Program-made: the position numbers and the translations under genes | Shown here: in pieces, positions 33,268-57,125 of the stretch | Position numbering within the stretch: the stretch's first letter is position 1 | How the letters are laid out: each line of letters begins with the position of its first letter | NCBI GenBank assembly: GCA_964511505.1 | Contig: CAZEFQ010000168.1 | Coordinates: 6,553-70,552 of the forward strand | Length of the DNA stretch: 64,000 nt | Source: an uncultured Rhizobium sp. | GTDB taxonomy: Bacteria; Pseudomonadota; Alphaproteobacteria; Micropepsales; Micropepsaceae | Reading direction: 5' to 3' | The notes under the pieces: generated by a model | What the model was told of the DNA's origin: nothing | Database searches by the model: none | The model's input: the letters and a program-made list of their open reading frames with translations, nothing else

Positions 33268-33540
33268 CTATGACGAAGTGGGGTCGAATGGCACTTTGGT
33301 CACCCGGGTGACCACCTTCCGTCCCCCGCGACTTTCCACATTCAGTTGCACTTGATCGCCGATCGCGACCGAGGACAGATCGACATTGGGTGCGACCGCG
33401 TACATGTCGGTGCTGCCAAGCAGCAATTCCTGCTTGTTCAGTGCAATATAGGTGATCCAACCTTTTACCGTTGCTGCGAATGTCGAAAGCGTGCTCGCGA
33501 AAAGGAGCGCGATGGCGACGGCGATGGTTTTTCTGCTCAT
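33268..33540 (-). CDS. Small secreted OB-fold-like protein (DUF1344-like)
   Basis: Signal peptide; VKGWI..L..VAIGDQV; GGAGGG RBS. Confidence 0.65.
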   Translation of the reverse strand: MSRKTIAVAIALLFASTLSTFAATVKGWITYIALNKQELLLGSTDMYAVAPNVDLSSVAIGDQVQLNVESRGGRKVVTRVTKVPFDPTSS

Positions 33541-33639
33541 GGCGCCCTCCAATGCCTAGGTGCAGCCAAACGCGTCGAACAGAAGCTTGTGACGACCGCA
33601 ACCTGCCGATCTTTGTGCCAAGTCCTGCTTGTCCTGCCC

Positions 33640-33653
33640 TTGACATGGATCAA
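33640..33653. promoter_or_regulatory. FNR/FixK-type box
   Basis: TTGAC-ATGG-ATCAA. Confidence 0.7.
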
Positions 33654-33704: not shown

Positions 33705-36251
33705 CTAGCGTTCGCCATCCTGGACAAGAGCTTTCTGTAAGCCGCGGCTACCTTTCGCCAACTGAAGAGCGACGACCAGGGCCAGGCCCGCGGCAAAGCA
33801 GCCTGCAATCTCGCCCTGGTTTAGCGGACTGAAATGAAAAAGTCCCTGGGCGCTTGGCAGATAGAGCGCCGCGGCCAGAACCGCACCCACCACCGAGACA
33901 AGAAGCCACAAAATCCGGTTCGGACGAAGCAGCGCTTCCGAAAGAGAAGTGCCAAAAGAGCGATTCACCAGGATCAGCCCGACGTTCATCAAGACAAGGA
34001 CCGTGAACACCAGCGCGCGCAACTCGTCCGGCGGCAGACCTGAAACCGAGCCCAGGAAAAGTGTTGCAGTGACAATAACCAGTGCCGTGGACCCCTGGCA
34101 GAATGCCCAAATGGCGGTTCTCCCCGGCAACACCGGGTCGCCCGGCCTGCGGGGAGGCCGCGCCATAACGTCTTTTTCTTCATTCTCTGCCTCGAAGACC
34201 ACCGAACAGGCGGGGTCGATTACCATCTCCAGAAGGGCAATTTGGATAGGCATGAGCATCAGAGGCAATCCGAACAGCAGGGGAATAACGGCCAATCCGG
34301 CTATGGGTATGTGGACCGCAACAATGTATTCGATTGCCTTTCGCAGATTGTCGTAGATTCTGCGCCCCAGTCGGATCGTGGCGACGATGGACGCGAAGTC
34401 GTCCTTGAGCAGGACCAGGCTGCTTGCCTCCCGGGCAACATCAGTGCCCCGGGCCCCCATCGCTATTCCGATATGAGCGGCTTTCATCGCGGGCGCATCA
34501 TTCACCCCATCTCCAGTCATGGCGACAATCTCGCCATTCTGCTTGAGAGCCTCGACCAGCCTCAACTTCTGCTGGGGACGAATTCGAGCATAGGTCGATG
34601 TCGTTTTCACCGCTTCCGCGATCTCCGGATCGCTCAATGTCTCCAGGGTTGCGCCGTCAAGGACCTCCCCAGCGTCTATGCCTGCCTGTGCCGCAATAGC
34701 TTTCGCGGTCAACGGGTAATCGCCGGTGATCATGACCACCCGTATCCCGGCACTTTGGCACTCTCTTACCGCAGCGGGCACTTCCGGCCGCAACGGGTCG
34801 GCAAAGCCGATGAGCCCGACATAGCGGAAGTCAATCTCGCGCTGCGACCGGGGCCGTGAGCCGTCCTGCCACGACAGTCTCGCCTGGGCCACCCCCAGAA
34901 CGCGGACCCCGCGCGCTGCAAAATCGTCAACCTCATGTAACAACCGTTCGCGCGCTTCACCCGACAATTTACACAATTCCGCAATCGCCTCTGGGGCTCC
35001 CTTGGCATAGGCGACCGCCGCGAACTCCCCGGAGGCGTCCCAGATGAAGGTGGTTGCCGGAAGGTCCGGAAGCAGGCCGTAACTGCCGAGAAGCGACGCC
35101 GGCCTGACGAGCTCGGCCTGCGATGCAGCGGCGTGGACCGCCTTGTCCATCGGATCAGTCGGAACCGGATCGCTTGCGCCAAGAGCCGCGTGGAGCGTGG
35201 CTTTCATGGTTTCTTGGAGGGGCAGACCGGTCGCCTTCCGCCAGACCACTCCGTCTGCGGCAATTAATTCGACCTGCATTTTGTTTTCCGTGAGCGTTCC
35301 GGTCTTGTCGGTGCACAAGACCGTTGCCGCCCCGAGTGTCTCGATGGCCGCGGCTCTTCTGGTCAAGACCCCGGCGCGCGATATCCGCCACGCGCCCATG
35401 GCCATGAACACGGTCAGAACGAGCGGGATCTCCTCCGGCAAAACCGACATGCCTATCGCAATGCCGGCCAGCGCTGCCTGCAACCAAGACCCTCTCGTGA
35501 ACCCCAGGAGCAATACAACCAATGCGGCGGTGAGCGTCCCGATACCGGCAAAATCCCGCACCAGCCACTGAAGCTGCTTTTGAAGCCGGGGTTGTTCGAG
35601 ATTCACCGATTTCAACGTTTGCCCGATCTTGCCTAATTCGGAAGACAGGCCGGTGGCAATTACACGCGCCGTTCCGGGGCCGCGAACCACCAGAGTACCC
35701 GCGTAAACGAAGGGCAAATCCTCTCCCCCCGGGGGCATCCATGACATGTCCTGACGCGATGGTATCTTCTGTACCGGGACTGATTCTCCCGTTAGTAACG
35801 ACTCGTCGGCAAGTACCTCATCACCGGACAGAAGCAACGCGTCAGCCGGCACCCGGTCGCCTTCCACCAGGATAATGGTGTCTCCCGGAACCAGGTCGCG
35901 GGCTGGAATGCGCTGGCGTTGCCCGTCCCGCAGCACGAGCGCGCGGGGACTTGCGAGGTTCCGCAGGGATTCGAGCACGCGCTCGCTGCGGCCTTCCTGC
36001 AAGACGCTGATCGACACCGAAAGCGTGGCAAACAGCGACAGGACGGTGGCGTCCAGGGCTTCTCCCAACAGGAAATAGATTGCCGCTCCCGCCAAAAGAA
36101 GCGCGAACATGGGCTGTCGTATGATGTCCCATATGATGCGCCCGACATTGCGGCGTTCTGCACTCGGCAGCTCATTCGGGCCGAATTGCCTGAGCCTTAG
36201 GGCCGCTTCCCTGGCACTCAATCCCTGGTCTGGGCGAAGGTCCATGGCCAT
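33705..36251 (-). CDS. P2-type cation-transporting P-type ATPase
   Basis: LTGES, LPEEIP, DKTGTLT, KGAPE, MITGD, GDGVNDAP. Confidence 0.94.
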   Translation of the reverse strand: MAMDLRPDQGLSAREAALRLRQFGPNELPSAERRNVGRIIWDIIRQPMFALLLAGAAIYFLLGEALDATVLSLFATLSVSISVLQEGRSERVLESLRNLASPRALVLRDGQRQRIPARDLVPGDTIILVEGDRVPADALLLSGDEVLADESLLTGESVPVQKIPSRQDMSWMPPGGEDLPFVYAGTLVVRGPGTARVIATGLSSELGKIGQTLKSVNLEQPRLQKQLQWLVRDFAGIGTLTAALVVLLLGFTRGSWLQAALAGIAIGMSVLPEEIPLVLTVFMAMGAWRISRAGVLTRRAAAIETLGAATVLCTDKTGTLTENKMQVELIAADGVVWRKATGLPLQETMKATLHAALGASDPVPTDPMDKAVHAAASQAELVRPASLLGSYGLLPDLPATTFIWDASGEFAAVAYAKGAPEAIAELCKLSGEARERLLHEVDDFAARGVRVLGVAQARLSWQDGSRPRSQREIDFRYVGLIGFADPLRPEVPAAVRECQSAGIRVVMITGDYPLTAKAIAAQAGIDAGEVLDGATLETLSDPEIAEAVKTTSTYARIRPQQKLRLVEALKQNGEIVAMTGDGVNDAPAMKAAHIGIAMGARGTDVAREASSLVLLKDDFASIVATIRLGRRIYDNLRKAIEYIVAVHIPIAGLAVIPLLFGLPLMLMPIQIALLEMVIDPACSVVFEAENEEKDVMARPPRRPGDPVLPGRTAIWAFCQGSTALVIVTATLFLGSVSGLPPDELRALVFTVLVLMNVGLILVNRSFGTSLSEALLRPNRILWLLVSVVGAVLAAALYLPSAQGLFHFSPLNQGEIAGCFAAGLALVVALQLAKGSRGLQKALVQDGER

Positions 36252-36314
36252 CACGATTGGCAGTGTGAGCCGCCCGGGATTTTACCGGGCGCCGAGATCG
36301 ATTCGAAGCCTTCG

Positions 36315-37193
36315 TTAAAGCATATCGGCAACCGTCTTGGCGATGATCCCGCTTACGTCAATGGCGGCGAATTCGTTCGGGACGGTATTGCAAGTGACCA
36401 GGCGGGCGCCCGCCGAGAGAATGGATTGGGCGGCTCCGGCGACAAGAGGTCCGTGAACCCCCAAGACGATCGGGCCGGACGCAGGCGCGGTTGACTGTAT
36501 CGCCTGTCGCATCGTGACGCCGCTGGCAATGATGTCGTCCAGGAACAGGGGAGTCCGGCCGGGCTCCAGGGGAATTGCCGGAGCGGTGATGCTGACGGAC
36601 CTGTCACCCATGCGCTGCTTGGAGAGTACCAGAAAAGGCGCATCGCAATCGTGCGCCACCGCGCTCACCCATTGGCGGCTTTCCTCGTCGGGCCCGATAA
36701 TCATGGGACGGCTCACATTTTTAAGGATCCAGGCGGCGATGGCCGGCCCCGCATGCACGACGCGGGACGGAATGGAGTAGATCTCGTCGAGGGTCTTGTA
36801 GCGATGCAGGTGAGGCTCGACGGTGGCGAGCCAGTCGAAAGCGCGGGAAATGAGCGCCGCGAAACTCTTCGAGGTCACGGCCTCGCCGTCCACGAAACGC
36901 CGGTCCTGCCGCATGTAGCAGAGATAGGGCGCCACAAGCCCGACCCGCCGCGCCCCCAGATCGCGGGCTGCATCGGCGGCGAACAGGAGTGCCGGTATCT
37001 TCGTGTCCGGGCGGGGCAAGCTGCAGACCAGGACAATGCTCCGTCCCGCAATGGCTTGGGCGAAGCGCAAGTGCGATTCTGCGTCCGGAAAGCGGGAGAC
37101 TTCCAGCCCACCCAACTCGCCCCCGCAGGCCGATGCCAGGCGCGTGGCCATCTCCTGGTTGCCAGGGAGCGCAAAGAAGACCGGCGGACTCAT
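36315..37193 (-). CDS. Ribose-phosphate pyrophosphokinase-like protein (short, divergent)
   Basis: RFPDAE, PYLCYMRQDR, EPHLH, DDIIASGVT. Confidence 0.88.
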   Translation of the reverse strand: MSPPVFFALPGNQEMATRLASACGGELGGLEVSRFPDAESHLRFAQAIAGRSIVLVCSLPRPDTKIPALLFAADAARDLGARRVGLVAPYLCYMRQDRRFVDGEAVTSKSFAALISRAFDWLATVEPHLHRYKTLDEIYSIPSRVVHAGPAIAAWILKNVSRPMIIGPDEESRQWVSAVAHDCDAPFLVLSKQRMGDRSVSITAPAIPLEPGRTPLFLDDIIASGVTMRQAIQSTAPASGPIVLGVHGPLVAGAAQSILSAGARLVTCNTVPNEFAAIDVSGIIAKTVADML

Positions 37194-38686
37194 GTGATCC
37201 CGAAAATTTCGGGATTGATCTCTGCATAACCCAGGGCATAAGCCAGTTCGCCCTCTGCCTCGGCATGCAGGGTGCAGAGCGGCGTGCCCGCCATCACCAT
37301 TTGCCCCAGGCAGACATGAAGCTCAACCCCGGCGGCCTTGGCGTTGGGCGCCCCCGCCAGTTTGGCCAGCCGGGCGACACGGCGATTATCTATGAAGGAT
37401 AGAACGCCGTCTTTCTTCGCGCAGAGCAGTTTGCGGAAGCGGGCGATGGGCGGCAGCCGCATGCCCCCTTGCGCCTCGCAGATGCGCTGGAATTTGTTCC
37501 AGGCCCGTCCGTCATCCAATGCCTTGGCGGCAAGCTCAACCCCGTGCCCCGGGGTCGAGGTGCCCGCCAGTTCCAGCACCGCCCCGGCCAGCTCAAGCGC
37601 CCGGCTCCGCAGATCATGGGGCGCCTCTTCCTTCCCGGTGAGGACGGACAGCACGTCCTGTGCCTCCAAGGCAGGCCCAATGCCGCGGCCGATGGGCTGA
37701 TTGCCGTCTCCGCGCACGATGCGGGTCCGCAAGCCGAATTGCCGCGCAACAGAAGCCAACCCGGCGCTGAGCGACTCGGCTGCTTCGGCACTGCGCACTT
37801 TCGCGGTGGGGCCCACCGGCATGTCGATCACCAGATGGGTGGAGCCCGCGGCGATTTTTTTGGAAAGCACTGAGGCGATCATCTGGCCCTCGCTGTCTAT
37901 ATCGAGCGCGTGCTCGATGCGGATCAGAATGTCGTCGGCCGGACTGAGGCGCATGGCGCCGCCCCAGGCAATGCAGCCCCCCTCCCGTTCCACAACCCGG
38001 CGCAATGTGGCCTCATCAAGATCCACCGGCGCCAGTGTTTCCATTGTGTCGGCCGTGCCCGCCGGAGAGGTTATCGCGCGGGAAGAGGTCTTTGGAATCA
38101 CAAGGCCCAGCGCGGCTGAGATCGCCACAACAATCGGCGTGGTGCGGTTTCCGGGAAGTCCGCCGACCGAATGCTTGTCGGCGATGACGGGACCCGGCCA
38201 ATGCATGCGCCGGCCGGTGTCCACCATGGCGCGGGTAAGAGAACAGATTTCGTCCTGCGCCAGCGGCTTGGCGGCGCAGGCCGTTATGAAAGAGGTCGTT
38301 TCGATGGCCGAATAGCGCCCGTCCACAATGTCTGAAATGACGAGATGAAAACCTCTTTCGTCGAGCGAATGGCCGAAGATGCGGCCGCGCACTAGGCTGA
38401 GGGATTCCACGACGGGTCCATGCCGGGCAAAGACCGGATCGCCCTCCTGGACTCCGAGAGCCCGCCATGTCGCATCCGACAGGCCGGCCTCGTCACAGTC
38501 CAGGAGATCGGATTCCACCTGATACAGCGTCGCGATGGCATGGCGGCCGCCGGCCGTGAGCAGAATCCGGTTGTGGGAGGTGAAGCCCTCGGAACGCGAA
38601 ACCGGACAATTCTTGTGCAGGAAAACGACGGTTTCCGAATGGGTGTCAAGGCCGAGACGGCGCGCTTTCAGGGCATAATCGCTCAT
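37190..38686 (-). CDS. AMP/NMP phosphorylase-like protein (thymidine phosphorylase family with N-terminal extension)
   Basis: DKHSVGGLPGNRTT, PKTSSRAITSPAGTAD, ASVLSKK, GIGPALEA; ATGA overlaps on both sides. Confidence 0.9.
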   Translation of the reverse strand: MSDYALKARRLGLDTHSETVVFLHKNCPVSRSEGFTSHNRILLTAGGRHAIATLYQVESDLLDCDEAGLSDATWRALGVQEGDPVFARHGPVVESLSLVRGRIFGHSLDERGFHLVISDIVDGRYSAIETTSFITACAAKPLAQDEICSLTRAMVDTGRRMHWPGPVIADKHSVGGLPGNRTTPIVVAISAALGLVIPKTSSRAITSPAGTADTMETLAPVDLDEATLRRVVEREGGCIAWGGAMRLSPADDILIRIEHALDIDSEGQMIASVLSKKIAAGSTHLVIDMPVGPTAKVRSAEAAESLSAGLASVARQFGLRTRIVRGDGNQPIGRGIGPALEAQDVLSVLTGKEEAPHDLRSRALELAGAVLELAGTSTPGHGVELAAKALDDGRAWNKFQRICEAQGGMRLPPIARFRKLLCAKKDGVLSFIDNRRVARLAKLAGAPNAKAAGVELHVCLGQMVMAGTPLCTLHAEAEGELAYALGYAEINPEIFGIT

Positions 38687-40050
38687 GACAGCACGACCTT
38701 CTGGCCGTGGTCCGGTACCACGCAATTCCAGTTCAGTCTTTCTTCCAGGGCATGGCGGAGCCCATCGGCTCCGGCCGGTTCGCCATGCACGATGAATGCG
38801 CTTCTTGGCGCTTTGCCGAAGCCCTGTGCCCAGCGCAGAAGTTCCTCGCGGTCCGCATGCGCCGACAGCATGGAAAGATTATGCACGTCGGCGCGCACGG
38901 GTATGTATGTGCCATGAATTTTTATACTGGACGCGCCTCGAACCATCGCGTCTCCCCGTGTGCCGCCGGCCTGGAAGCCGGCAAAGAGCACGCTGTTGCG
39001 GGGGTCGGAAGCATAATGCGCCAAGTGATGCAAGACGCGGCCCCCGGTCGCCATGCCGCTGGCGGAAACGATGATCTTCGCCATCCGATTGGCTGTGAGG
39101 GCTTTGGACTCCTCCGCGGTCCGGACGTAGTGGATGTCTCCTCCTACCAGGCGAAGCTCACTGGGGCCCAGCCTTTGGTCTTTGGGATGCCGCCGGAAAA
39201 TATCCGTGGCATCAATCGCCATGGGACTGTCGAGAAAAACGGGAAGCAGGCGGGGAAGCCGTCCCGCTTCCTTGAGGCGGGCGATATGATAAAGCAGGCT
39301 TTGCGCCCTGCCTACCGCAAAGGCCGGCACAATGACCGTCCCGCCACGATGGATGGTTTTGCCGATGATATTCGACAAGACATCGCCGGGATCGGCCCGG
39401 TCGTGCAGGCGGTCGCCATAGGTCGACTCCATCAGGAGATAATCGGCGGGACCGATGGGATCCGGATCAAGCATCAGGGGATCATTGTAGCGGCCGATGT
39501 CGCCCGAAAAGGCCACCTTTTTGCTTTCCCATGTCACAATCGCGGAAGCCGCGCCCAGGATATGGCCGGCGCGCACGAAGCGCAGCCGTGCGCCACAGGC
39601 AAGGCCGGTATCGGCGCCGAATTCCACCGGCCGTAGCTGCGTCAAAGCCCGCCGGGCGTCGGCTTCCGTATAAAGCGGAAAGGCGGGATTGTGCTTGGAA
39701 AAACGGTGACGATTGGCGTATTCGGCGTCCTGTTCCTGCAGATGGCCCGAATCCGGAAGCAGGATGCCGCAAAGATCGGCAGTTGCCTCGGTGCAAAATA
39801 TCGGCCCGCGAAATCCTTTTTTAACGAGCAGGGGCAGGTATCCGCTGTGATCGAGATGTGCATGGGTGAGGATGACGGCGGAAATGCCCGCGGGTTTGAA
39901 GGGCGGAGCATCCCAGTTCCGAAGCCTGAGCGCCTTGTATCCCTGGAAAAGGCCGCAATCCACCAGCAGGCGGCCGCCGTTACCCTGCAGCAGATATTTC
40001 GAGCCGGTGACCGTGCCGGCGCCGCCAAAAAAAGAAAGTTCGAGCGCCAC
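38683..40050 (-). CDS. MBL-fold beta-CASP ribonuclease-like protein
   Basis: VTGSKY, DCGLFQG, THAHLDH, AGHILG, ESTYGDR, SGMATGGR, SAHAD; GTG 40050 preferred over ATG 40104. Confidence 0.92.
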   Translation of the reverse strand: MALELSFFGGAGTVTGSKYLLQGNGGRLLVDCGLFQGYKALRLRNWDAPPFKPAGISAVILTHAHLDHSGYLPLLVKKGFRGPIFCTEATADLCGILLPDSGHLQEQDAEYANRHRFSKHNPAFPLYTEADARRALTQLRPVEFGADTGLACGARLRFVRAGHILGAASAIVTWESKKVAFSGDIGRYNDPLMLDPDPIGPADYLLMESTYGDRLHDRADPGDVLSNIIGKTIHRGGTVIVPAFAVGRAQSLLYHIARLKEAGRLPRLLPVFLDSPMAIDATDIFRRHPKDQRLGPSELRLVGGDIHYVRTAEESKALTANRMAKIIVSASGMATGGRVLHHLAHYASDPRNSVLFAGFQAGGTRGDAMVRGASSIKIHGTYIPVRADVHNLSMLSAHADREELLRWAQGFGKAPRSAFIVHGEPAGADGLRHALEERLNWNCVVPDHGQKVVLS

Positions 40051-40063
40051 GCTGCCGGACCTT

Positions 40064-40393
40064 TCAGGTCTTTCCGTCCAGAACTTCTTTTTTTGCCCGC
40101 TCATAAAGCTGCTTCATCACGCCTTTGAGAACGGTGTCGGAAACATCCACCTTGCCCTCTGCGAAGTCCGCATGCAGGCGGTCAAAGACGGGGTCATGGC
40201 CCTTGCCTGTTACCCCGGCGCGGACAAGGCCGGCCGCATAATCCGCCAAGGCCGCTCCTGTAAGGGAAAGCCTGCCTCCTGCCCATTCGCCCAGGAGCCT
40301 GTTGCGCATGGACATCGCCCGGAAATGCGCTTCCTCGTCATGAGCCCATTTGGCTTCATAACCCCGTTCCCGTTCGTCAAATAGGTCCGTCAT
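40064..40393 (-). CDS. DUF1476 / F1Fo ATPase inhibitor zeta-like protein
   Basis: FDERERGYEAKWAHDEE..F....RNRLLGEWA resembles the zeta N-terminus; GGGAGG RBS. Confidence 0.88.
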   Translation of the reverse strand: MTDLFDERERGYEAKWAHDEEAHFRAMSMRNRLLGEWAGGRLSLTGAALADYAAGLVRAGVTGKGHDPVFDRLHADFAEGKVDVSDTVLKGVMKQLYERAKKEVLDGKT

Positions 40394-40439
40394 TCTGGCC
40401 TCCCATGCGTCACTGTCCCGGCCCCGCGATATTGCCGCG

Positions 40440-40453
40440 TTGATCCGGATCAA
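40440..40453. promoter_or_regulatory. Perfect FNR/FixK box between divergent units
   Basis: TTGAT-CCGG-ATCAA. Confidence 0.88.
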
Positions 40454-40486: not shown

Positions 40487-40759
40487 ATGATTGCGTTGGA
40501 GGATTGCATCGCATTATGCGGCTTGACTGAAAAGGAAGTCGCGGCCATCGCTGAACATGAGCATGTGCCGGCGATCGCCGCCGCCATCCTGGGCCAATAT
40601 CTCTTGTCTCAGAAGGGCGGAAGCCAGAAAATCCGCGATATTCTGGTGGACGACATCCGGGCTGCCTTGGCTGCGGGTGACAGCAAACATGCCGCCGAAT
40701 TGGTATCCGCGCTCCGCCATTTCATGAGCTATCCGCAAACCGGCGATACCAGACCCTGA
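40487..40759 (+). CDS. Small hypothetical protein
   Basis: Helical 90-aa ORF (LEDCIALCGLT..AIAEHEH) starting 40.5 bp from box centre. Confidence 0.75.
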   Translation: MIALEDCIALCGLTEKEVAAIAEHEHVPAIAAAILGQYLLSQKGGSQKIRDILVDDIRAALAAGDSKHAAELVSALRHFMSYPQTGDTRP

Positions 40760-40807
40760 CTCGCATGCCTCGGCATGTCGGCAGAGATATTTTCGGCAAA
40801 CCGCGTG

Positions 40808-40821
40808 TTGATCCGGATCAA
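40808..40821. promoter_or_regulatory. Perfect FNR/FixK box
   Basis: TTGAT-CCGG-ATCAA. Confidence 0.88.
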
Positions 40822-40873
40822 TCACGGCTCCGGCAAAGGATGCAATGTTCAAAACGATACAAAGGAGGTTTTC

Positions 40874-41299
40874 ATGTTTAAAAAAACGATACGACTGCTT
40901 GGCGCCGTGGGCATGCTCTCGGGCCTTAATACCGCCGCCATGGCGCAATCGGCTGCGCCCGCCGTTGAGCAGATCATTGTTACGGCGCCCCTGATCGTGG
41001 AAGTGAAAAAACCCGCGAATGCCACCGCGGCGCAAAGCGCCGGGGCCGGCAAGGGTGTCTTCACCGTGCTCACCGCTTCCAGCAATGTGAGTTTCGCCGA
41101 TCTCGACATCACCAAATATGCCGGCATCAACACGCTGGAAAAACGCATCTCCGACACGGCCACCGCGACCTGCAACCAGCTCAAGCGCAAATATCCAGAA
41201 AGCGTCTATGTGCCGGTCCAGACAGCGGACTGTGTCAAGTCGGCAACCGACCAGGCGATGAACCAGGTCTTTGCCATCATGGTCGCGTCCGCGAAATAA
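40874..41299 (+). CDS. UrcA family secreted protein (paralog of 27633-28016)
   Basis: VSFADLDI..RISDTA...C..L..KYP..VY.PV..C; AAGGAGG RBS. Confidence 0.82.
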   Translation: MFKKTIRLLGAVGMLSGLNTAAMAQSAAPAVEQIIVTAPLIVEVKKPANATAAQSAGAGKGVFTVLTASSNVSFADLDITKYAGINTLEKRISDTATATCNQLKRKYPESVYVPVQTADCVKSATDQAMNQVFAIMVASAK

Positions 41300-46301: not shown

Positions 46302-47630
46302 TCAAAGACCGAAGGGGTAGGTCTCCGGCATCCCTTTGGGCCGCTCAAGCGGCAAGGGCGTGATGGCACGGCTGTCCTCAAACCAGATCAGGGCATCGAA
46401 CTGTTCGCTCATGACGGCCTGGAAATAATGGCTGAGCAATTCCGTGTCCGGGCGATAGACGACCCCGATGGCGCGTTCCAGCCGCACCTCTTGCAGCAGC
46501 GCGCGCAGGTCAGGGCGGGTCCGCCAATCGGTGAGCGATCTTGCATGTCCGGCATGGCGAAAAAGATATTCATAACTGTCCGGCCGCGCCGGACGTACCG
46601 CCTTGACCTCCATCGGCGAGTCCCAGTCGGATGCCGCCGCCACCGTTCCGCGATCGGTGCCAAAGCCGATCGCCGCCATGTCCGAACCATAGGCGGTGCG
46701 GCAAAGCTCACCGATATTGAACTCTCCCTCCCAACCCATGGAGGTGGCCGCAGCGTTGCCGATATGGGAGTTGTGCGCCCATACAACCGTCTTTGCCTTT
46801 TTTCGGTGCTTCACCAGAAGCTGCAGAGTATCGAACATATGGCGATCACGCAGGTTCCAGGATTCGCGCGATCCCCGGTACATGATCCGGTAATAGCGTT
46901 CGGCCGCACGGACGATGCGGGCGTTCTGCGCGGCGTCAAAGAAATCATTCCCGTCCCTGGCGGCATAGTCCAGGCGCGCCTTGAGCAGGTTCAGGAGTTG
47001 CTCCTGGACTTCGGCTTCGCAAGTTTCTCCACCCATGACCGCATGGTGTCCATAACGGCCGGGATCGTCCTGCCAGGGCGTGAGACATCCATAACGCCGC
47101 CGCGCTGCGGCGGCCTCCTGCGGGTCGATCCTGTCCAGGTAGGAAAGGACCGCAGCCATGGAAGTGGATAGGCTGTAGATATCCAGTCCGCGAAACTCGA
47201 CCCGGTCCGCTTCCGGCCGCGGCTGATTGAATTTGCGCAGCCACTCGGCGAATTCCAGCACTTCCTGGTTGCACCACATCCAGCTGGGGAAGCGCGAGAA
47301 CGCCCGTTCGCCCTCCAGATGCGAAGAGCCATGCCGGACATAACGGTCGATCCGGCCGGCATCGGGCCAGTCGGCCTCCACAGCGACAATATTGAAACCG
47401 TGATCCCGGATCAGGCAGCGCGTGATCGCCGCCCGGGCACGGTAGAACTCACTGGGTCCGTGTGTCGCCTCACCCAGTAGGACGATTTCCGCCGCGCCGA
47501 AACGATGGAAAAAATCGCCAAAGCCATCGGCCTGCTCGGGCGGCGGCAGATCCTCGGCGGCCGATGAGAGGATGCGAACCGCGTCGCTTTGGGAACGGTC
47601 CAGTGGGCGGGTGCGAATATCCTGAACCAT
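46302..47630 (-). CDS. Erythromycin esterase family protein
   Basis: LGEATHG, EADWPD, WNLRDRHM, WAHNSH, ERAIGVVY. Confidence 0.9.
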   Translation of the reverse strand: MVQDIRTRPLDRSQSDAVRILSSAAEDLPPPEQADGFGDFFHRFGAAEIVLLGEATHGPSEFYRARAAITRCLIRDHGFNIVAVEADWPDAGRIDRYVRHGSSHLEGERAFSRFPSWMWCNQEVLEFAEWLRKFNQPRPEADRVEFRGLDIYSLSTSMAAVLSYLDRIDPQEAAAARRRYGCLTPWQDDPGRYGHHAVMGGETCEAEVQEQLLNLLKARLDYAARDGNDFFDAAQNARIVRAAERYYRIMYRGSRESWNLRDRHMFDTLQLLVKHRKKAKTVVWAHNSHIGNAAATSMGWEGEFNIGELCRTAYGSDMAAIGFGTDRGTVAAASDWDSPMEVKAVRPARPDSYEYLFRHAGHARSLTDWRTRPDLRALLQEVRLERAIGVVYRPDTELLSHYFQAVMSEQFDALIWFEDSRAITPLPLERPKGMPETYPFGL

Positions 47631-47639
47631 GCATCCCTC

Positions 47640-48299
47640 CTAAGCAGGGGCCGCCGCGGGCTTACGGCTGCGAGAAAGAAGTGCGATCACCTGCGCATCG
47701 CTGACCTCGCCGAAATCGCCGTAGAAATAGCCTACCGCACCAAAGGGCTCCGGCGTGGCGAGACAAACCACCAGATCGGCGTCGCCGCGGAAATCGTCTG
47801 CTACGCCCGCCGGCGCCACCGGTATAGCCATCACCACCATTGCCGGATCGCGCCGCCGTACCGCTTTGAGCGCGGCCCGCATGGTATTGCCGGTGGCCAA
47901 CCCGTCATCCACCACAATCACGATTTTGCCCTTGAGATCGGGGGCCGGGCGGCCTGCCAGGTAGAAGCGGCGGCGGCGCTCGATTTCCGCCAACTCTCGC
48001 GCGCAAATGGCATCGAATTGTTGGGGGGTCGTGCCCGTCACCCGGATCATTGCCTCATCGCGAATCACGATCGGCGCACCGCCGTCAATCACCGCCCCGA
48101 CCGCCAGTTCCTCATGCTGGGGGGCCCCGATCTTGCGCACCAGCAAAAGGTCCAGCGGCGCGTCCAGTATGTCCGCGACATGGGCGGCGACCGGCACGCC
48201 CCCGCGGGGAAGGGCAAGAACCACGCATGCCCGGCCCTTGAAAGCCGCCAAGGCTGCGGCCAACCGAAGACCTGCATCGTCGCGGTCGCGAAACAGCAT
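47640..48299 (-). CDS. Type I phosphoribosyltransferase-like protein
   Basis: FRDRDDAG, LPRGGVPV, VVDDGLATG, AVGYFY.DF. Confidence 0.9.
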   Translation of the reverse strand: MLFRDRDDAGLRLAAALAAFKGRACVVLALPRGGVPVAAHVADILDAPLDLLLVRKIGAPQHEELAVGAVIDGGAPIVIRDEAMIRVTGTTPQQFDAICARELAEIERRRRFYLAGRPAPDLKGKIVIVVDDGLATGNTMRAALKAVRRRDPAMVVMAIPVAPAGVADDFRGDADLVVCLATPEPFGAVGYFYGDFGEVSDAQVIALLSRSRKPAAAPA

Positions 48300-48309
48300 G
48301 GGTTCCTCC

Positions 48310-48963
48310 TTAGTGGAAGTTTTCCTTGAGATAACGTTCGAACCAACTCCTGGCCAAAACCATCACACCCTCCATGGCGCCGGGTTCCGGAAAGAGATGG
48401 GTGGCGCCAGGGATGATCTCCAAGCTGCTGACGGCCTTGAGCTGGCGCGCGGCCAGTCGGTTCAGATCCAGAACCTCCCGGTCATTGCCTCCGACGATAA
48501 GCAGGGTCGGGGCCGTTACGCGGGCGAGCGCCGCGCCTGCAAGATCGGGCCGTCCGCCGCGTGAAACGACCGCCGAAACCTTGTTGCCGAGTTCCGCGGC
48601 CGCGACCAGCGCCGCCGCGGCTCCGGTGCTGGCGCCGAAAAAGCCCAGGGGCAAACCGGTTGCCGGTCCCCGCCCGGCCCATGCGACGGCATCCAGCAGG
48701 CGCTCCGCCAGAAGGGCGATGTCGAAGACATTGGCCCGGTTGCGCACGGATTCTTCCGCCGGATGCAGCAAATCGAACAACAGTGTCGCCATCCCGGCCT
48801 GGTTCAGGGCATCGGCGACTTCGCGATTGCGCGTGCTGAACCGGCTGGAGCCGCTGCCATGCGCAAAGATCACCAATCCCGAAGCCCGATGCGGTCGCCG
48901 GAAGAATCCGGGAAGCCTGTTTGTCCCGACCAACACTTCACTGGGGGAGATCGTCTCGACCAT
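48310..48963 (-). CDS. Dienelactone hydrolase-like alpha/beta hydrolase
   Basis: FAHGSGSSR, GASTG, SRGGRPDL, GATHLF. Confidence 0.88.
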   Translation of the reverse strand: MVETISPSEVLVGTNRLPGFFRRPHRASGLVIFAHGSGSSRFSTRNREVADALNQAGMATLLFDLLHPAEESVRNRANVFDIALLAERLLDAVAWAGRGPATGLPLGFFGASTGAAAALVAAAELGNKVSAVVSRGGRPDLAGAALARVTAPTLLIVGGNDREVLDLNRLAARQLKAVSSLEIIPGATHLFPEPGAMEGVMVLARSWFERYLKENFH

Positions 48964-48996: not shown

Positions 48997-49010
48997 TTGA
49001 CCCTGATCAA
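48997..49010. promoter_or_regulatory. FNR/FixK-type box (hydrolase operon side)
   Basis: TTGAC-CCTG-ATCAA; TAGAGT -10 on minus strand at 48970-48975. Confidence 0.8.
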
Positions 49011-49022
49011 CTCCGCGCAGCT

Positions 49023-49036
49023 TTGCGCTGGATCAA
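49023..49036. promoter_or_regulatory. FNR/FixK-type box (nitroreductase side)
   Basis: TTGCG-CTGG-ATCAA. Confidence 0.65.
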
Positions 49037-53674: not shown

Positions 53675-56041
53675 ATGAATCGCAAGCAAGCCCGCAAGCC
53701 GACCGATTTCGCCGTTCTCGACCGCTATTGGCAGGCCGCCAATTTTCTTTCGGTGGGTCAGGTTTATCTGCAGGCCAATGCGCTGCTTCGGGAGCCGTTG
53801 AAACTGGAGCATGTCAAGCCCCGGCTCCTTGGTCATTGGGGCACCACCCCCGGGCTCAATTTCATTTATGCGCATCTCAATCGCATCATAAAAGAGCGGG
53901 ATCTCAACATGATCCTGATCACCGGGCCCGGCCATGGCGGTCCCGGACTGGTGGCGAACGCCTATCTCGAGGGGTCTTACACCGAACGTTTTCCGGCCAT
54001 CGAGCGCAACGCCAACGGCATTGAGCGGCTGATGCGCCAATTCTCCTGGCCTTATGGCGTACCCAGCCATGCCGCGCCGGAAACGCCGGGCTCCATCCAT
54101 GAGGGCGGGGAGTTGGGCTATTCGCTGGCACATGCCTATGGCGCGGCATTCGACAATCCGGACCTGATCGTGGCCTGTGTCGTGGGCGACGGGGAGGCGG
54201 AGACCGGCCCCCTGGCCACCTCCTGGCACTCCAACAAGTTTCTCGATCCCCGGCGCGACGGCGCGGTGCTGCCCATTCTTCATCTCAATGGCTACAAGAT
54301 CGCCAATCCTACCGTGCTTGCCCGCATCCAACGCAGTGAGTTGAGCGCCTTGCTCAAGGGCTATGGCTATGAACCCATATTCGTTGAAGGCCATGATCCC
54401 ATGCCGATGCACCGCAAGATGGCATCGGCCCTGGACAAGTGCATCAGCACGATCCGGGCGGTCCAAAGAAGGGCGCGCACCGGACGCGGCTCTTTGCGGC
54501 GTCCCCGCTGGCCCATGATCGTCCTGGTGACACCCAAGGGTTGGACCGGACCCAAAAAGGTGGATGGACTGCCGGCGGAAGGTAGCTGGCGTTCACACCA
54601 GGTACCGATCACCCACATGGATAAAAAGGGGCATGTCGCGCTGCTTGAACGCTGGATGAAAGGCTACCGGCCTGACCGGTTGTTCGACCAACACGGCAAG
54701 CTCAGCGAAGAACTGGCCGCCCTGGCCCCCACCGGACACCGCCGGCTGGGCATGAATCCCCATGCCAATGGCGGCGAATTGCTGGTGCCGCTTTCCTTGC
54801 CGCAGTTCCGGGATTTCTCGGTGACGGTTAAGGCACCGGGACAGGTCCAAGCTGAGGCCACCCGTATATTGGGTGAATATCTGCGGGAAGTTTTCACGTT
54901 GAACGCCGGCAACAATAATTTCCGGCTCTTCGGGCCGGACGAGACCGCCTCCAATCGCCTTGATGCCGTCTACCAAGCCACCGGCAAGACCTGGATGGCC
55001 GCCCGGCTTGCCACCGATTGCGATCTGGCGCCGGACGGGCGGGTGATGGAGATACTCAGCGAACATATGTGCCAGGGTTGGCTGGAAGGTTATCTTCTCA
55101 CCGGCCGGCACGGATTTTTCAGCTGTTATGAGGCCTTTGTCCACATCGTCGATTCCATGGTCAACCAGCACGCCAAGTGGATCAAATCGTGCAAGGACAT
55201 TGCCTGGCGCGCTCCCATCGCTTCCCTCAATTATCTGCTCACCAGCCATGTCTGGCGCCAGGACCATAACGGCTTCAGCCATCAGGACCCCGGTTTCATC
55301 GATCATGTGGCGAACAAAAAGCCGGAGATCGCCCGCATCTATTTGCCGCCGGATGCCAATTGCCTTCTGTCCGTGGCCGACCATTGCCTGAAGAGCCGCA
55401 ACTACATCAATGTGATTGTGGCCGGCAAACAGCCCGCTTGGCAGTGGCTGGACATGGACCGCGCCGTGCGCCATTGCGTGGCGGGGGCCGGCATATGGGA
55501 ATGGGCCGGCCACAAGGGAGAGGATCCCGATATCGTCATGGCTTCGGCCGGCGATGTCCCCACCATGGAGATGCTGGCGGCGGTGATGCTTCTGCGCGAG
55601 CATGTGCCCGGCCTGCGCATCCGCGTGGTCAATGTGGTGGACCTGATGACCTTATGGCCGGCAGATGAGCATCCCCACGGCCTCAATGACCATGATTTTG
55701 GCTCCCTCTTCACCAAGGACCGGCCGGTGATCTTCGCCTATCACGGCTATCCGACGCTGATCCACAAGCTTACTTACAACCGCGCCAACCACGCCAATTT
55801 TCACGTTCACGGCTTCAATGAAGAAGGCACAACCACCACGCCTTTCGACATGGTTGTTCTCAACAAGCTCGATCGCTTTTCCTTGATGCGCAACGCAGTC
55901 CGGCGGCTTCCGCAGCTGGCGTCGCGGGTGGCGGAGATAGACGAGATCTATTGGGGCGCCATGGAACGCCACAAGCTCCATATCAGCGAGCATGGCACGG
56001 ACATGCCGGAAGTGGCCGATTGGCGCTGGACGCCGGGATAG
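53675..56041 (+). CDS. xfp: Xylulose-5-P/fructose-6-P phosphoketolase
   Basis: [46 protein letters not shown]. Confidence 0.96.
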
Positions 56042-56048
56042 AGACGCG

Positions 56049-57125
56049 ATGAATATCTTGGCGTTGAACGCCGGCTCTTCTTCGCTCAAGTTCCGGCTGG
56101 GACCGCCCGAAGGTCCTGCCCGGTTCACGGGTGAGGCCCAAGGCTTTGGTCACACGCCGGCATTCGATATCAGAGATGCGAGCGGCGCAAAAGTGACGGA
56201 AGCGGCCCATCCCACCCTGGCCGATGCCGCCAAAGCGGTGCTCGATTTTGCCGGCCGCCAGGCAAAACCCGACGCCATTGGCCATCGCTTCGTCCATGGC
56301 GGTCCCGGTCTCCTCAGCCACCGGCGCATCGACGTCGAGGTGCGGGCTGCGCTGATCGCCGCGTCCCAGTTCGCCCCTTTGCACAATCCGCCGGCACTGG
56401 AGGTTCTGGCGCTCAGCGATGCCGTGTTCCCCGGATTGCCGCAGGTCGCCTGCCTGGATACCGCCTTTCATGCGGACATGCCGCTTTTGGCGCAGCGCCT
56501 GCCGCTGCCCGCGAACCGTCTTCCGCCGGGCCTTCGCCGTTACGGCTTTCACGGCCTTTCCTGCGAATCCATCCTGGAGCAGTTCGATACCGTGCCGCCG
56601 CGCCTGGTGATCGCCCATCTGGGCGGGGGTGCCAGTGTCACTGCCGTCAAGAATGGCCGCTCTCTCGACAGCAGCATGGGATTGACTCCCACCGGCGGCC
56701 TGATGATGGAAACCCGCAGTGGCGATCTCGATCCGGGCGTGTTGATCTACCTGTTGCGCCGGGGCGAGACGGCGGATTCGCTGGAACAGCTTGTCAATCG
56801 GCAAAGCGGCCTTGCCGGCATATCCGGCCAGGCTGATTTGCGCGCGGTCCGGGCTTTGAACGATGCGAACGGGACACTGGCTTTGGAGATGTTTGCCATC
56901 AGCGCCGCAAAGGCCATAGCCGCGATGGCCGCGGTGCTGGACGGCATGGATATGCTCGTTTTTACCGGCGGCATAGGGGAGCATGATGGCGGCATGCGGG
57001 AGGCGATCGGGGCCCGGTTGGGCTGGATGGGAAAATTTTCCGTCCAGGTGCTTCCGGCCAGGGAGGAAATCGTCATCGCCAGGCACACCGCCAGGCTGGC
57101 GGGGGCGGGAACCATCCCAGCTTAA
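56049..57125 (+). CDS. ackA: Acetate kinase
   Basis: NAGSSSLK, HRFVHGG, APLHN, DTAFH, YGFHG, SMGLTP, FTGGIGE. Confidence 0.94.
   Translation: MNILALNAGSSSLKFRLGPPEGPARFTGEAQGFGHTPAFDIRDASGAKVTEAAHPTLADAAKAVLDFAGRQAKPDAIGHRFVHGGPGLLSHRRIDVEVRAALIAASQFAPLHNPPALEVLALSDAVFPGLPQVACLDTAFHADMPLLAQRLPLPANRLPPGLRRYGFHGLSCESILEQFDTVPPRLVIAHLGGGASVTAVKNGRSLDSSMGLTPTGGLMMETRSGDLDPGVLIYLLRRGETADSLEQLVNRQSGLAGISGQADLRAVRALNDANGTLALEMFAISAAKAIAAMAAVLDGMDMLVFTGGIGEHDGGMREAIGARLGWMGKFSVQVLPAREEIVIARHTARLAGAGTIPA

Follow-up and report, generated by a model that had tools for sequence, protein, structure and literature searches.

The DNA analysed here, 64,000 nt of contig CAZEFQ010000168.1 from an uncultured Rhizobium sp. 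placed in the Micropepsaceae (assembly GCA_964511505.1, positions 6,553 to 70,552; hereafter the window), was found to carry a unit of three genes encoding a ribonuclease, a nucleoside monophosphate (NMP) phosphorylase-like protein of family TIGR02645 and a protein of family PRK07199 that resembles phosphoribosyl pyrophosphate (PRPP) synthase (PRS). This unit is real, conserved and widespread. The trio may constitute a Rubisco-free NMP shunt used at low oxygen, in which ribose 1,5-bisphosphate (R15P) and AMP would be interconverted with ribose 5-phosphate (R5P) and ADP (R15P + AMP ↔ R5P + ADP); the proposal is drawn from sequence and is tentative, held at a little under even chances.

The three genes are on the minus strand. 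The first (38683..40050) encodes a TTHA0252-like beta-CASP metallo-beta-lactamase (MBL) ribonuclease with Beta-Casp and RMMBL domains, and its likely start is the GTG at 40050, in a frame open from 40104. The phosphorylase gene (37190..38686; TIGR02645/PRK04350) starts with the ATG at 38686 and encodes 498 aa, while the PRS-like gene (36315..37193) encodes a 292 aa member of PRK07199, a predicted R15P-handling phosphotransferase with a PD-x-E-S loop. ATGA overlaps join the nuclease and phosphorylase genes and the phosphorylase and PRS-like genes. Both overlaps had been described in an earlier sequence-only reading of the window, which placed the trio in a run of five co-oriented genes together with genes for zeta, an inhibitor subunit of the F1Fo-ATPase, and a P-type ATPase, and this orientation was also confirmed. 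The host belongs to the Alphaproteobacteria, and the nearest named homologues come from Rhizomicrobium.

Conservation was followed in three sets, namely the best 80 of 229 related loci, from which L045, L046 and L083 were removed as duplicates to leave 77 (44 with full 9-kb flanks), a genus sample of 150 genomes each at least 85% complete, and a phylum sample of 400 genomes. As some related loci belong to genomes of the genus sample, and as kin and horizontally shared copies are included, the counts are not independent. The 77 loci come from Alpha-, Beta- and Gammaproteobacteria, Bacteroidota and further groups; 71 contain the PRS-like gene (44 of 44 with full flanks) and 53 the nuclease gene (34 of 44). 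In the genus sample the phosphorylase was found in 33 genomes and PRK07199 in 32, all 32 co-occurring and 30 of them with adjacent genes, and PRK07199 was found in none of the other 117. In the phylum sample 40 of the 41 genomes with PRK07199 carry the phosphorylase, and 40 of the 48 with the phosphorylase carry PRK07199. That the three-gene core occurs in other bacteria, which the sequence-only reading had stated, is borne out by these loci and by the 32 pairings among 33 genus genomes. Mirror-tree analysis of 43 loci gave modest correlations of 0.60 for phosphorylase and PRS-like protein, 0.60 for phosphorylase and nuclease and 0.48 for PRS-like protein and nuclease, which were not used as evidence; L019, which has a stop codon, was excluded from alignment A2. 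Among 40 plasmid matches listed, 27 are at least 35% identical to the PRS-like protein of the window.

Gene fusions were also seen. A PRS-like/transaldolase fusion (P0272, 660 aa) is present on five contigs, and in P0131 (724 aa, one contig only) a PRS-like domain replaces the N-terminal domain of the phosphorylase across a junction that looks clean. The putative fusions P0271, P0273, P0274 and L067 (ATPase-phosphorylase) were rejected as read-throughs with frameshift-like junctions. Queries with rpiA, rpe, transaldolase and apt gave no matches in the related loci. A role as a defence system was rejected, as none of seven proteins matched the PADLOC anti-phage models. A gene with an ATP-cone and an Mrr-type nuclease domain lies near the phosphorylase gene in nine loci (L035, L057-L059, L063, L064, L068, L070 and L082), mostly of Bacteroidota.

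The closest solved relative of the nuclease is the Thermus beta-CASP ribonuclease TTHA0252 (E 2e-73), and rRNA and mRNA are candidate substrates of the window enzyme. All MBL/beta-CASP motifs are present, and HxHxDH, H181, D202, E226, H416 and H440 are conserved across 57 sequences, including the C-terminal His that marks the RNA-specific members among beta-CASP proteins. The phosphorylase passes TIGR02645 (559, cut-off 435) and PRK04350 and falls short of the equivalog cut-off for archaeal AMP phosphorylases (TIGR03327, 457 vs 535), while it is far below the cut-offs for thymidine/pyrimidine phosphorylases (TIGR02643, 141 vs 571; TIGR02644, 183 vs 409). Its best match in the PDB is 4GA5, the Thermococcus kodakarensis enzyme (E 7e-95, aligned over residues 58-488), and it has E-H-A-L where nucleoside phosphorylases have the R-D-V-T base motif. 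The SSRAITS and GNRTT motifs and the N-terminal extension of AMP phosphorylases, already recognised in the sequence-only reading, are present. G176, S202-S207, T211, D264, S272 and K296, which we take to be the nucleotide-site residues of the T. kodakarensis enzyme, are kept in 77-78 of 78 sequences. The phosphorylase is predicted to split NMPs to R15P.

The PRS-like protein passes PRK07199 (336 vs cut-off 322) and is under the class III cut-off (PRK00934, 176 vs 296). Its predicted structure has the class III fold (pLDDT 92.7, TM 0.91 to the archaeal PRS 3MBI). With class III (archaeal) PRPP synthases (3MBI, 1U9Y, 4TWB) it has in common the fold, the length and the adenine, Mg, R5P and catalytic residues, and neither has the C-terminal allosteric tail of class I; as the PD-x-G-G loop is missing as well, the protein does not fall in class I. 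It retains F35, D37, E39, R95-Q-D, H128, D169, K192, R194, D219, D220 and T227, and the catalytic Lys/Arg are preserved. For E. coli and human PRS, PMC9232217, PMC6332680 and bioRxiv 10.1101/2022.06.27.496812 name residues that bind adenine, Mg, R5P and the phosphate under attack, and the residues retained here match them.

The protein differs from these enzymes in its tie to the phosphorylase gene and in its pyrophosphate loop, which reads PD-x-E-S (in the longer motif, PD-x-E-S-x-Q-W) instead of PD-x-G-G/A. The x-E-S following D169 (E171/S172) was found in 70 of 70 locus proteins that cover the loop and in 119 of 120 database homologues, and among 150 distant PRS-like representatives E was found in 135 and S in 139 at these positions; for comparison, all 26 housekeeping PRS have x-G-G there, and all three archaeal PRS alignments x-G-A/G. 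In an hhalign match with ungapped extension, E171 aligns with the Arg of the E-A-R-G loop in the adenine phosphoribosyltransferase (APRT) of the same genome. By analogy, the PD-x-G-G/A loop of PRS would be the one that binds the gamma-phosphate. In phosphoribosyltransferases (PRTases) an E-A-R-G-type pyrophosphate loop holds a PRPP phosphate, as described in the accessible text of PMC12102755 and PMC5430920; that of PMC5395218 adds nothing further on the loop. The protein is most simply read as a predicted catalyst of the PRS reaction lacking one phosphate, R5P + ADP ↔ R15P + AMP. Loop remodelling has turned a PRS fold to a new use in the phage ADP-ribose pyrophosphokinase Adps of NARP1 (PMC13586617), which sets a precedent although its loop, substrate and context all differ from those seen here. 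An R15P hydrolase was also considered and was rejected on the ground that no adenine-binding residue varies.

The known outlets for R15P are absent. In the genome, which is 95% complete, searches found no Rubisco, no PhnN and no R15P isomerase, the sole IF-2B match being a gene beside apt that was read from its sequence as MtnA-type. The sequence-only reading, which saw neither Rubisco nor R15P isomerase in the window and assumed rpi and rpe to be supplied from elsewhere, is upheld on both points, since RpiA and Rpe are encoded outside the window in the same genome. Among the 33 genus genomes with the phosphorylase, R15P isomerase above the TIGR00511 cut-off and PhnN were found in none, and Rubisco gave any match in four and a strong match in one. 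With no R15P isomerase or Rubisco in this bacterial branch, R15P needs another outlet.

One such outlet is known in PhnN, a ribose 1,5-bisphosphokinase with a P-loop fold unrelated to that of the PRS-like protein. In three of the eight phylum genomes that have the phosphorylase and no PRK07199, belonging to three families, PhnN is fused to the phosphorylase and encoded directly after nadC (L176:3149-5080, L177:3659-5977 and L178:2877-5096). The fusions form a sister clade to the trio phosphorylases, with some changed base-binding residues. They suggest that this phosphorylase branch is tied to R15P and that PhnN and PRK07199 are alternative outlets. With nadC next to them, the fusions may form a route in which a nucleotide yields R15P and then PRPP, for use in making NAD. 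Three stand-alone TIGR02645 phosphorylases from small-genome alphaproteobacteria (L144-L146) have neither PRK07199 nor PhnN and weigh little because their active-site motifs are degenerate; tandem thymidine-phosphorylase-like genes are present in the same genomes.

In the proposed shunt, the beta-CASP enzyme would cut RNA to NMPs, the phosphorylase would convert NMP and phosphate to base and R15P, and the PRS-like protein would move the 1-phosphate of R15P onto AMP to give R5P and ADP. The final step would be the PRPP synthase reaction in reverse with one phosphate fewer, and one phosphoanhydride bond per nucleotide would be saved relative to hydrolytic routes. Phosphoketolase, acetate kinase and transaldolase, linked to the trio in some loci, would be the downstream users of pentose phosphate and, like the RNase, speak for a catabolic direction. 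The operon would share its first step with the archaeal NMP shunt but is not a member of that pathway. In T. kodakarensis (TK0352, R15P isomerase, form III Rubisco; PDB 4GA4-4GA6) the phosphorylase has the N-terminal extension and the same SSRAITS/GTAD/D-x7-S/K residues, whereas here, and in nearly all genomes with the module, R15P isomerase and Rubisco are absent and the phosphorylase is accompanied by an RNase and a PRS-like protein, in an aerobic proteobacterium with an FNR/FixK box. The archaeal enzyme acts on AMP, CMP and UMP and also makes NMPs from R15P (PMC9700705, text available in part), and the accessible passages of PMC9700705 and PMC5113843 describe the NMP shunt only with the isomerase and Rubisco.

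Regulation by oxygen is suggested by a perfect FNR/FixK-type palindrome, TTGAT-CCGG-ATCAA, at 40440..40453 (TTGATCCGGATCAA), present as the sequence-only reading stated. It lies between divergent genes. Measured from its centre, the ATG of the zeta gene is 53.5 nt away and that of a 90-aa open reading frame (ORF) on the plus strand (40487..40759) is 40.5 nt away; this ORF matches no known family and has 65% homologues near the module in loci L007 and L017. As the box is near both ATGs and fits both divergent directions, it may serve the zeta side, the 90-aa ORF side or both; the ORF is possibly a leaderless FixK-dependent gene. Perfect boxes number 20 in the genome (2.6 expected) and three in the window (0.05 expected), contig C130 encodes a FixK-like regulator that contains an ETVSR helix, and 16 of 71 loci have a box within 250 nt upstream (1.9 expected). 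A scan for sigma-70 promoters gave counts at chance level.

The nearest expression data are from Bradyrhizobium diazoefficiens. At 0.5% O2, the available tables of PMC6515984 give bll3115 (MBL hydrolase), bll3116 (ribose-phosphate pyrophosphokinase) and bll3117 (thymidine-phosphorylase family) as up by log2 2.9, 4.4 and 2.1 in protein and 15.4-, 7.7- and 5.1-fold in RNA, with the phosphoketolase bll2518 up too. In the fixK2 mutant, by the accessible data of PMC9104804, bll3115 was 30.6-fold and bll3117 6.6-fold down, with a box at -74, and bll2518-17 was down 10-fold. In these data bll3117-bll3116-bll3115 shows the same three product names, one predicted operon, a FixK2-type box, microoxic induction and FixK2 dependence, the last two of which are shared by bll2518-bll2517 (xfp-ackA); the operon differs from that in the window in having the phosphorylase first and no zeta, and its genes are known here from omics tables. 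The low-oxygen induction proposed in the sequence-only reading therefore holds for the same-named trio and xfp-ackA of B. diazoefficiens, and by extension is predicted for the present organism.

The same reading had linked the operon to xfp-ackA, and this was found to be true in part. The genes are at 53675-57125 as given, on the plus strand, 13 kb from the operon and in a separate transcription unit. The phosphoketolase gene xfp (53675..56041) is above the PRK05261 cut-off, and the acetate kinase gene ackA (56049..57125, PF00871) starts 7 nt past its stop; both are candidate downstream steps. A one-mismatch FNR/FixK-like box at 48997..49010 stands at the head of a run of plus-strand genes whose last members are xfp and ackA, and more near-boxes are at 49023 and 49746. 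Phosphoketolases of two unrelated lineages occur in 19 of the 77 loci (12 canonical, seven distant; 15 of 44 with full flanks) and ackA in 11 (10 of 44). In L049 the genes run nuclease, ORF, phosphorylase, ackA, xfp-like and PRS-like, with ackA and the phosphoketolase-like gene ATGA-coupled between those of the phosphorylase and the PRS-like protein. An obligatory tie was not supported, and the link is optional, holding in some lineages and in co-regulation, as in L049 and B. diazoefficiens. The distant phosphoketolase-like lineage lies inside the operon in L016, L021, L022, L026, L027, L032 and L049; it is about 22% identical to the xfp product of the window and far under all PRK05261 cut-offs.

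Several points weigh against the shunt. Both of its steps are uphill in the catabolic direction, by about +13 and +9 kJ/mol, so that a pull would be needed. The role assigned to the loop in PRS draws its support solely from analogy with other PRTases. Of the phylum genomes, 8 of 48 with the phosphorylase have no PRK07199, and one of 41 has PRK07199 with an intact loop and no phosphorylase. The PhnN-nadC fusions would send R15P to PRPP, which favours salvage, albeit from a separate clade with changed base-binding residues. In the genus sample xfp is not enriched (11 of 33 module genomes vs 25 of 117 others, Fisher p 0.17, at a threshold that may miss divergent phosphoketolases), and 55 of 71 loci show no box. 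The bll3115-17 genes are matched to those of the window by name and clustering only, not by sequence orthology, and they are not among the direct FixK2 targets in the table from PMC6515984. The literature search gave no bacterial activity for the three families and no biochemical study of the trio, absence from print not being established by it.

The main rival is salvage to PRPP, which is possible and on balance unlikely. Here the PRS-like protein would replace PhnN and convert R15P to PRPP with ATP or ADP. While ADP inhibits the housekeeping PRS, the ribose of RNA would thereby be reused to build nucleotides and NAD for half as much ATP as usual. The apparent interchange of PhnN and PRK07199 as phosphorylase partners, the position of the PhnN fusions beside nadC, a PRPP user, the absence of PhnN from all 33 module genomes and that of xfp from 22 of them agree with this. 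However, the conserved site appears to be built for one phosphate fewer between ribose and leaving group than this reaction would need, and the place expected to hold the distal phosphate of PRPP is now taken by an acidic residue. It also leaves the coupled ackA/phosphoketolase genes and the transaldolase fusion unexplained, and the APRT query found no PRTase gene in the 77 loci.

Alternatively, the PRS-like protein could be an ordinary unregulated PRPP synthase of class III type, with the phosphorylase removing its AMP product or acting as a phosphoribosyltransferase dependent on pyrophosphate/PRPP, like its fold relative TrpD. Databases do name the protein ribose-phosphate pyrophosphokinase, its closest structures are active archaeal PRS and the class I tail is missing. 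We consider this improbable, as a canonical prs is present elsewhere in the genome (contig C171), Gly occupies the position of E171 in every solved or housekeeping PRS examined, and R15P would have no outlet if the phosphorylase is phosphate-dependent. Similarly improbable is the chemistry of the shunt run forward, R5P + ADP giving R15P + AMP and R15P + base giving NMP + phosphate, as a PRPP-independent, ADP-powered salvage or base exchange. This is the downhill direction on the energetics given above, and the archaeal enzyme is described in the accessible part of PMC9700705 as also making NMPs from R15P, but the RNase would already supply NMPs, and the enzymes linked to the trio (phosphoketolase, acetate kinase and transaldolase) use up pentose phosphate.

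The flanking genes of the operon do not belong to the conserved pathway. The zeta/DUF1476 gene (40064..40393, minus strand; PF07345, 97 bits, with a conserved N-terminus) is the only copy in the genome, has its likely start at ATG 40393 (109 aa, GGAGG ahead) and ends 13 nt before the likely start of the nuclease gene. The span 33705..40453 assigned earlier to the operon covers the genes, its end at 40453 being that of the box and not of the zeta gene. A place for zeta in a conserved module was not supported, as it was found beside the module in none of the 77 loci and is a near-universal single-copy gene of the genus (131 of 150 genomes), usually elsewhere. In the 14 genus zeta loci examined, none lies next to the module, eight adjoin a gene block that we take to be purC, and one strict box was seen, 13 kb from zeta. 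In this genome and its closer relatives zeta is found in other, variable places instead of beside the purC-like block (contig C5 comparison). The gene for a type IIA-like cation P-type ATPase (33705..36254, minus strand; PEE, DKTGT, TGES and GDGVND motifs; PMR1-type as best NCBIfam match, below cut-off) follows the PRS-like gene after 60 nt. A role for it as a core part was not supported, a close homologue being near only 4 of 77 loci; in L011, too, an ATPase gene directly follows the PRS-like gene. We regard zeta and the ATPase as passengers of local origin that are plausibly induced together with the trio; having zeta in a five-gene arrangement is a peculiarity of this genome and of little weight on its own.

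The least probable alternative is the literal version of the sequence-only reading, in which zeta, the three enzymes, the P-type ATPase and xfp-ackA would have evolved as a single module for energy crises: it draws on the closeness of zeta to the nuclease gene behind the box, on L011 and on the FixK2-dependent blr3815, listed beside the homologues of the trio in B. diazoefficiens and presumably a cation ATPase, and it is opposed by the loci just described, in which zeta and the module are apart. Inhibition by zeta moreover varies among species and is not seen in every one, as stated in the available text of PMC10469736.

The surroundings in the window are a typical low-oxygen gene set, comprising a BON protein, a second FtsH, a USP, a cytochrome c and xfp-ackA; USP is also present in 12 and BON in 10 of the 77 loci. 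Just beyond the ATPase gene, an FNR-like box with one mismatch (33640-33653) lies upstream of a gene for a small secreted protein (33268-33552). A UrcA-family protein is encoded at 40775-41299 on the plus strand, and a second, identical perfect box at 40808 is upstream of its likely start at 40876. Following the box at 48997, genes for a hydrolase, a PRTase and an erythromycin-esterase-family protein lie in a row on the minus strand (46302-48963), and a hydrolase and a PRTase form one fused protein in loci L048 and L069.

NMP phosphorylase has been understood only together with R15P isomerase and Rubisco, and 48 of the 400 phylum genomes carry the phosphorylase here. The data single out one candidate enzyme, the PRS-like protein, one residue, E171, and one reaction. 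If the proposed shunt is correct, thousands of annotations as 'PRPP synthase' and 'thymidine phosphorylase' would be wrong, and aerobes would hold an overlooked way of drawing ATP from RNA when oxygen fails.

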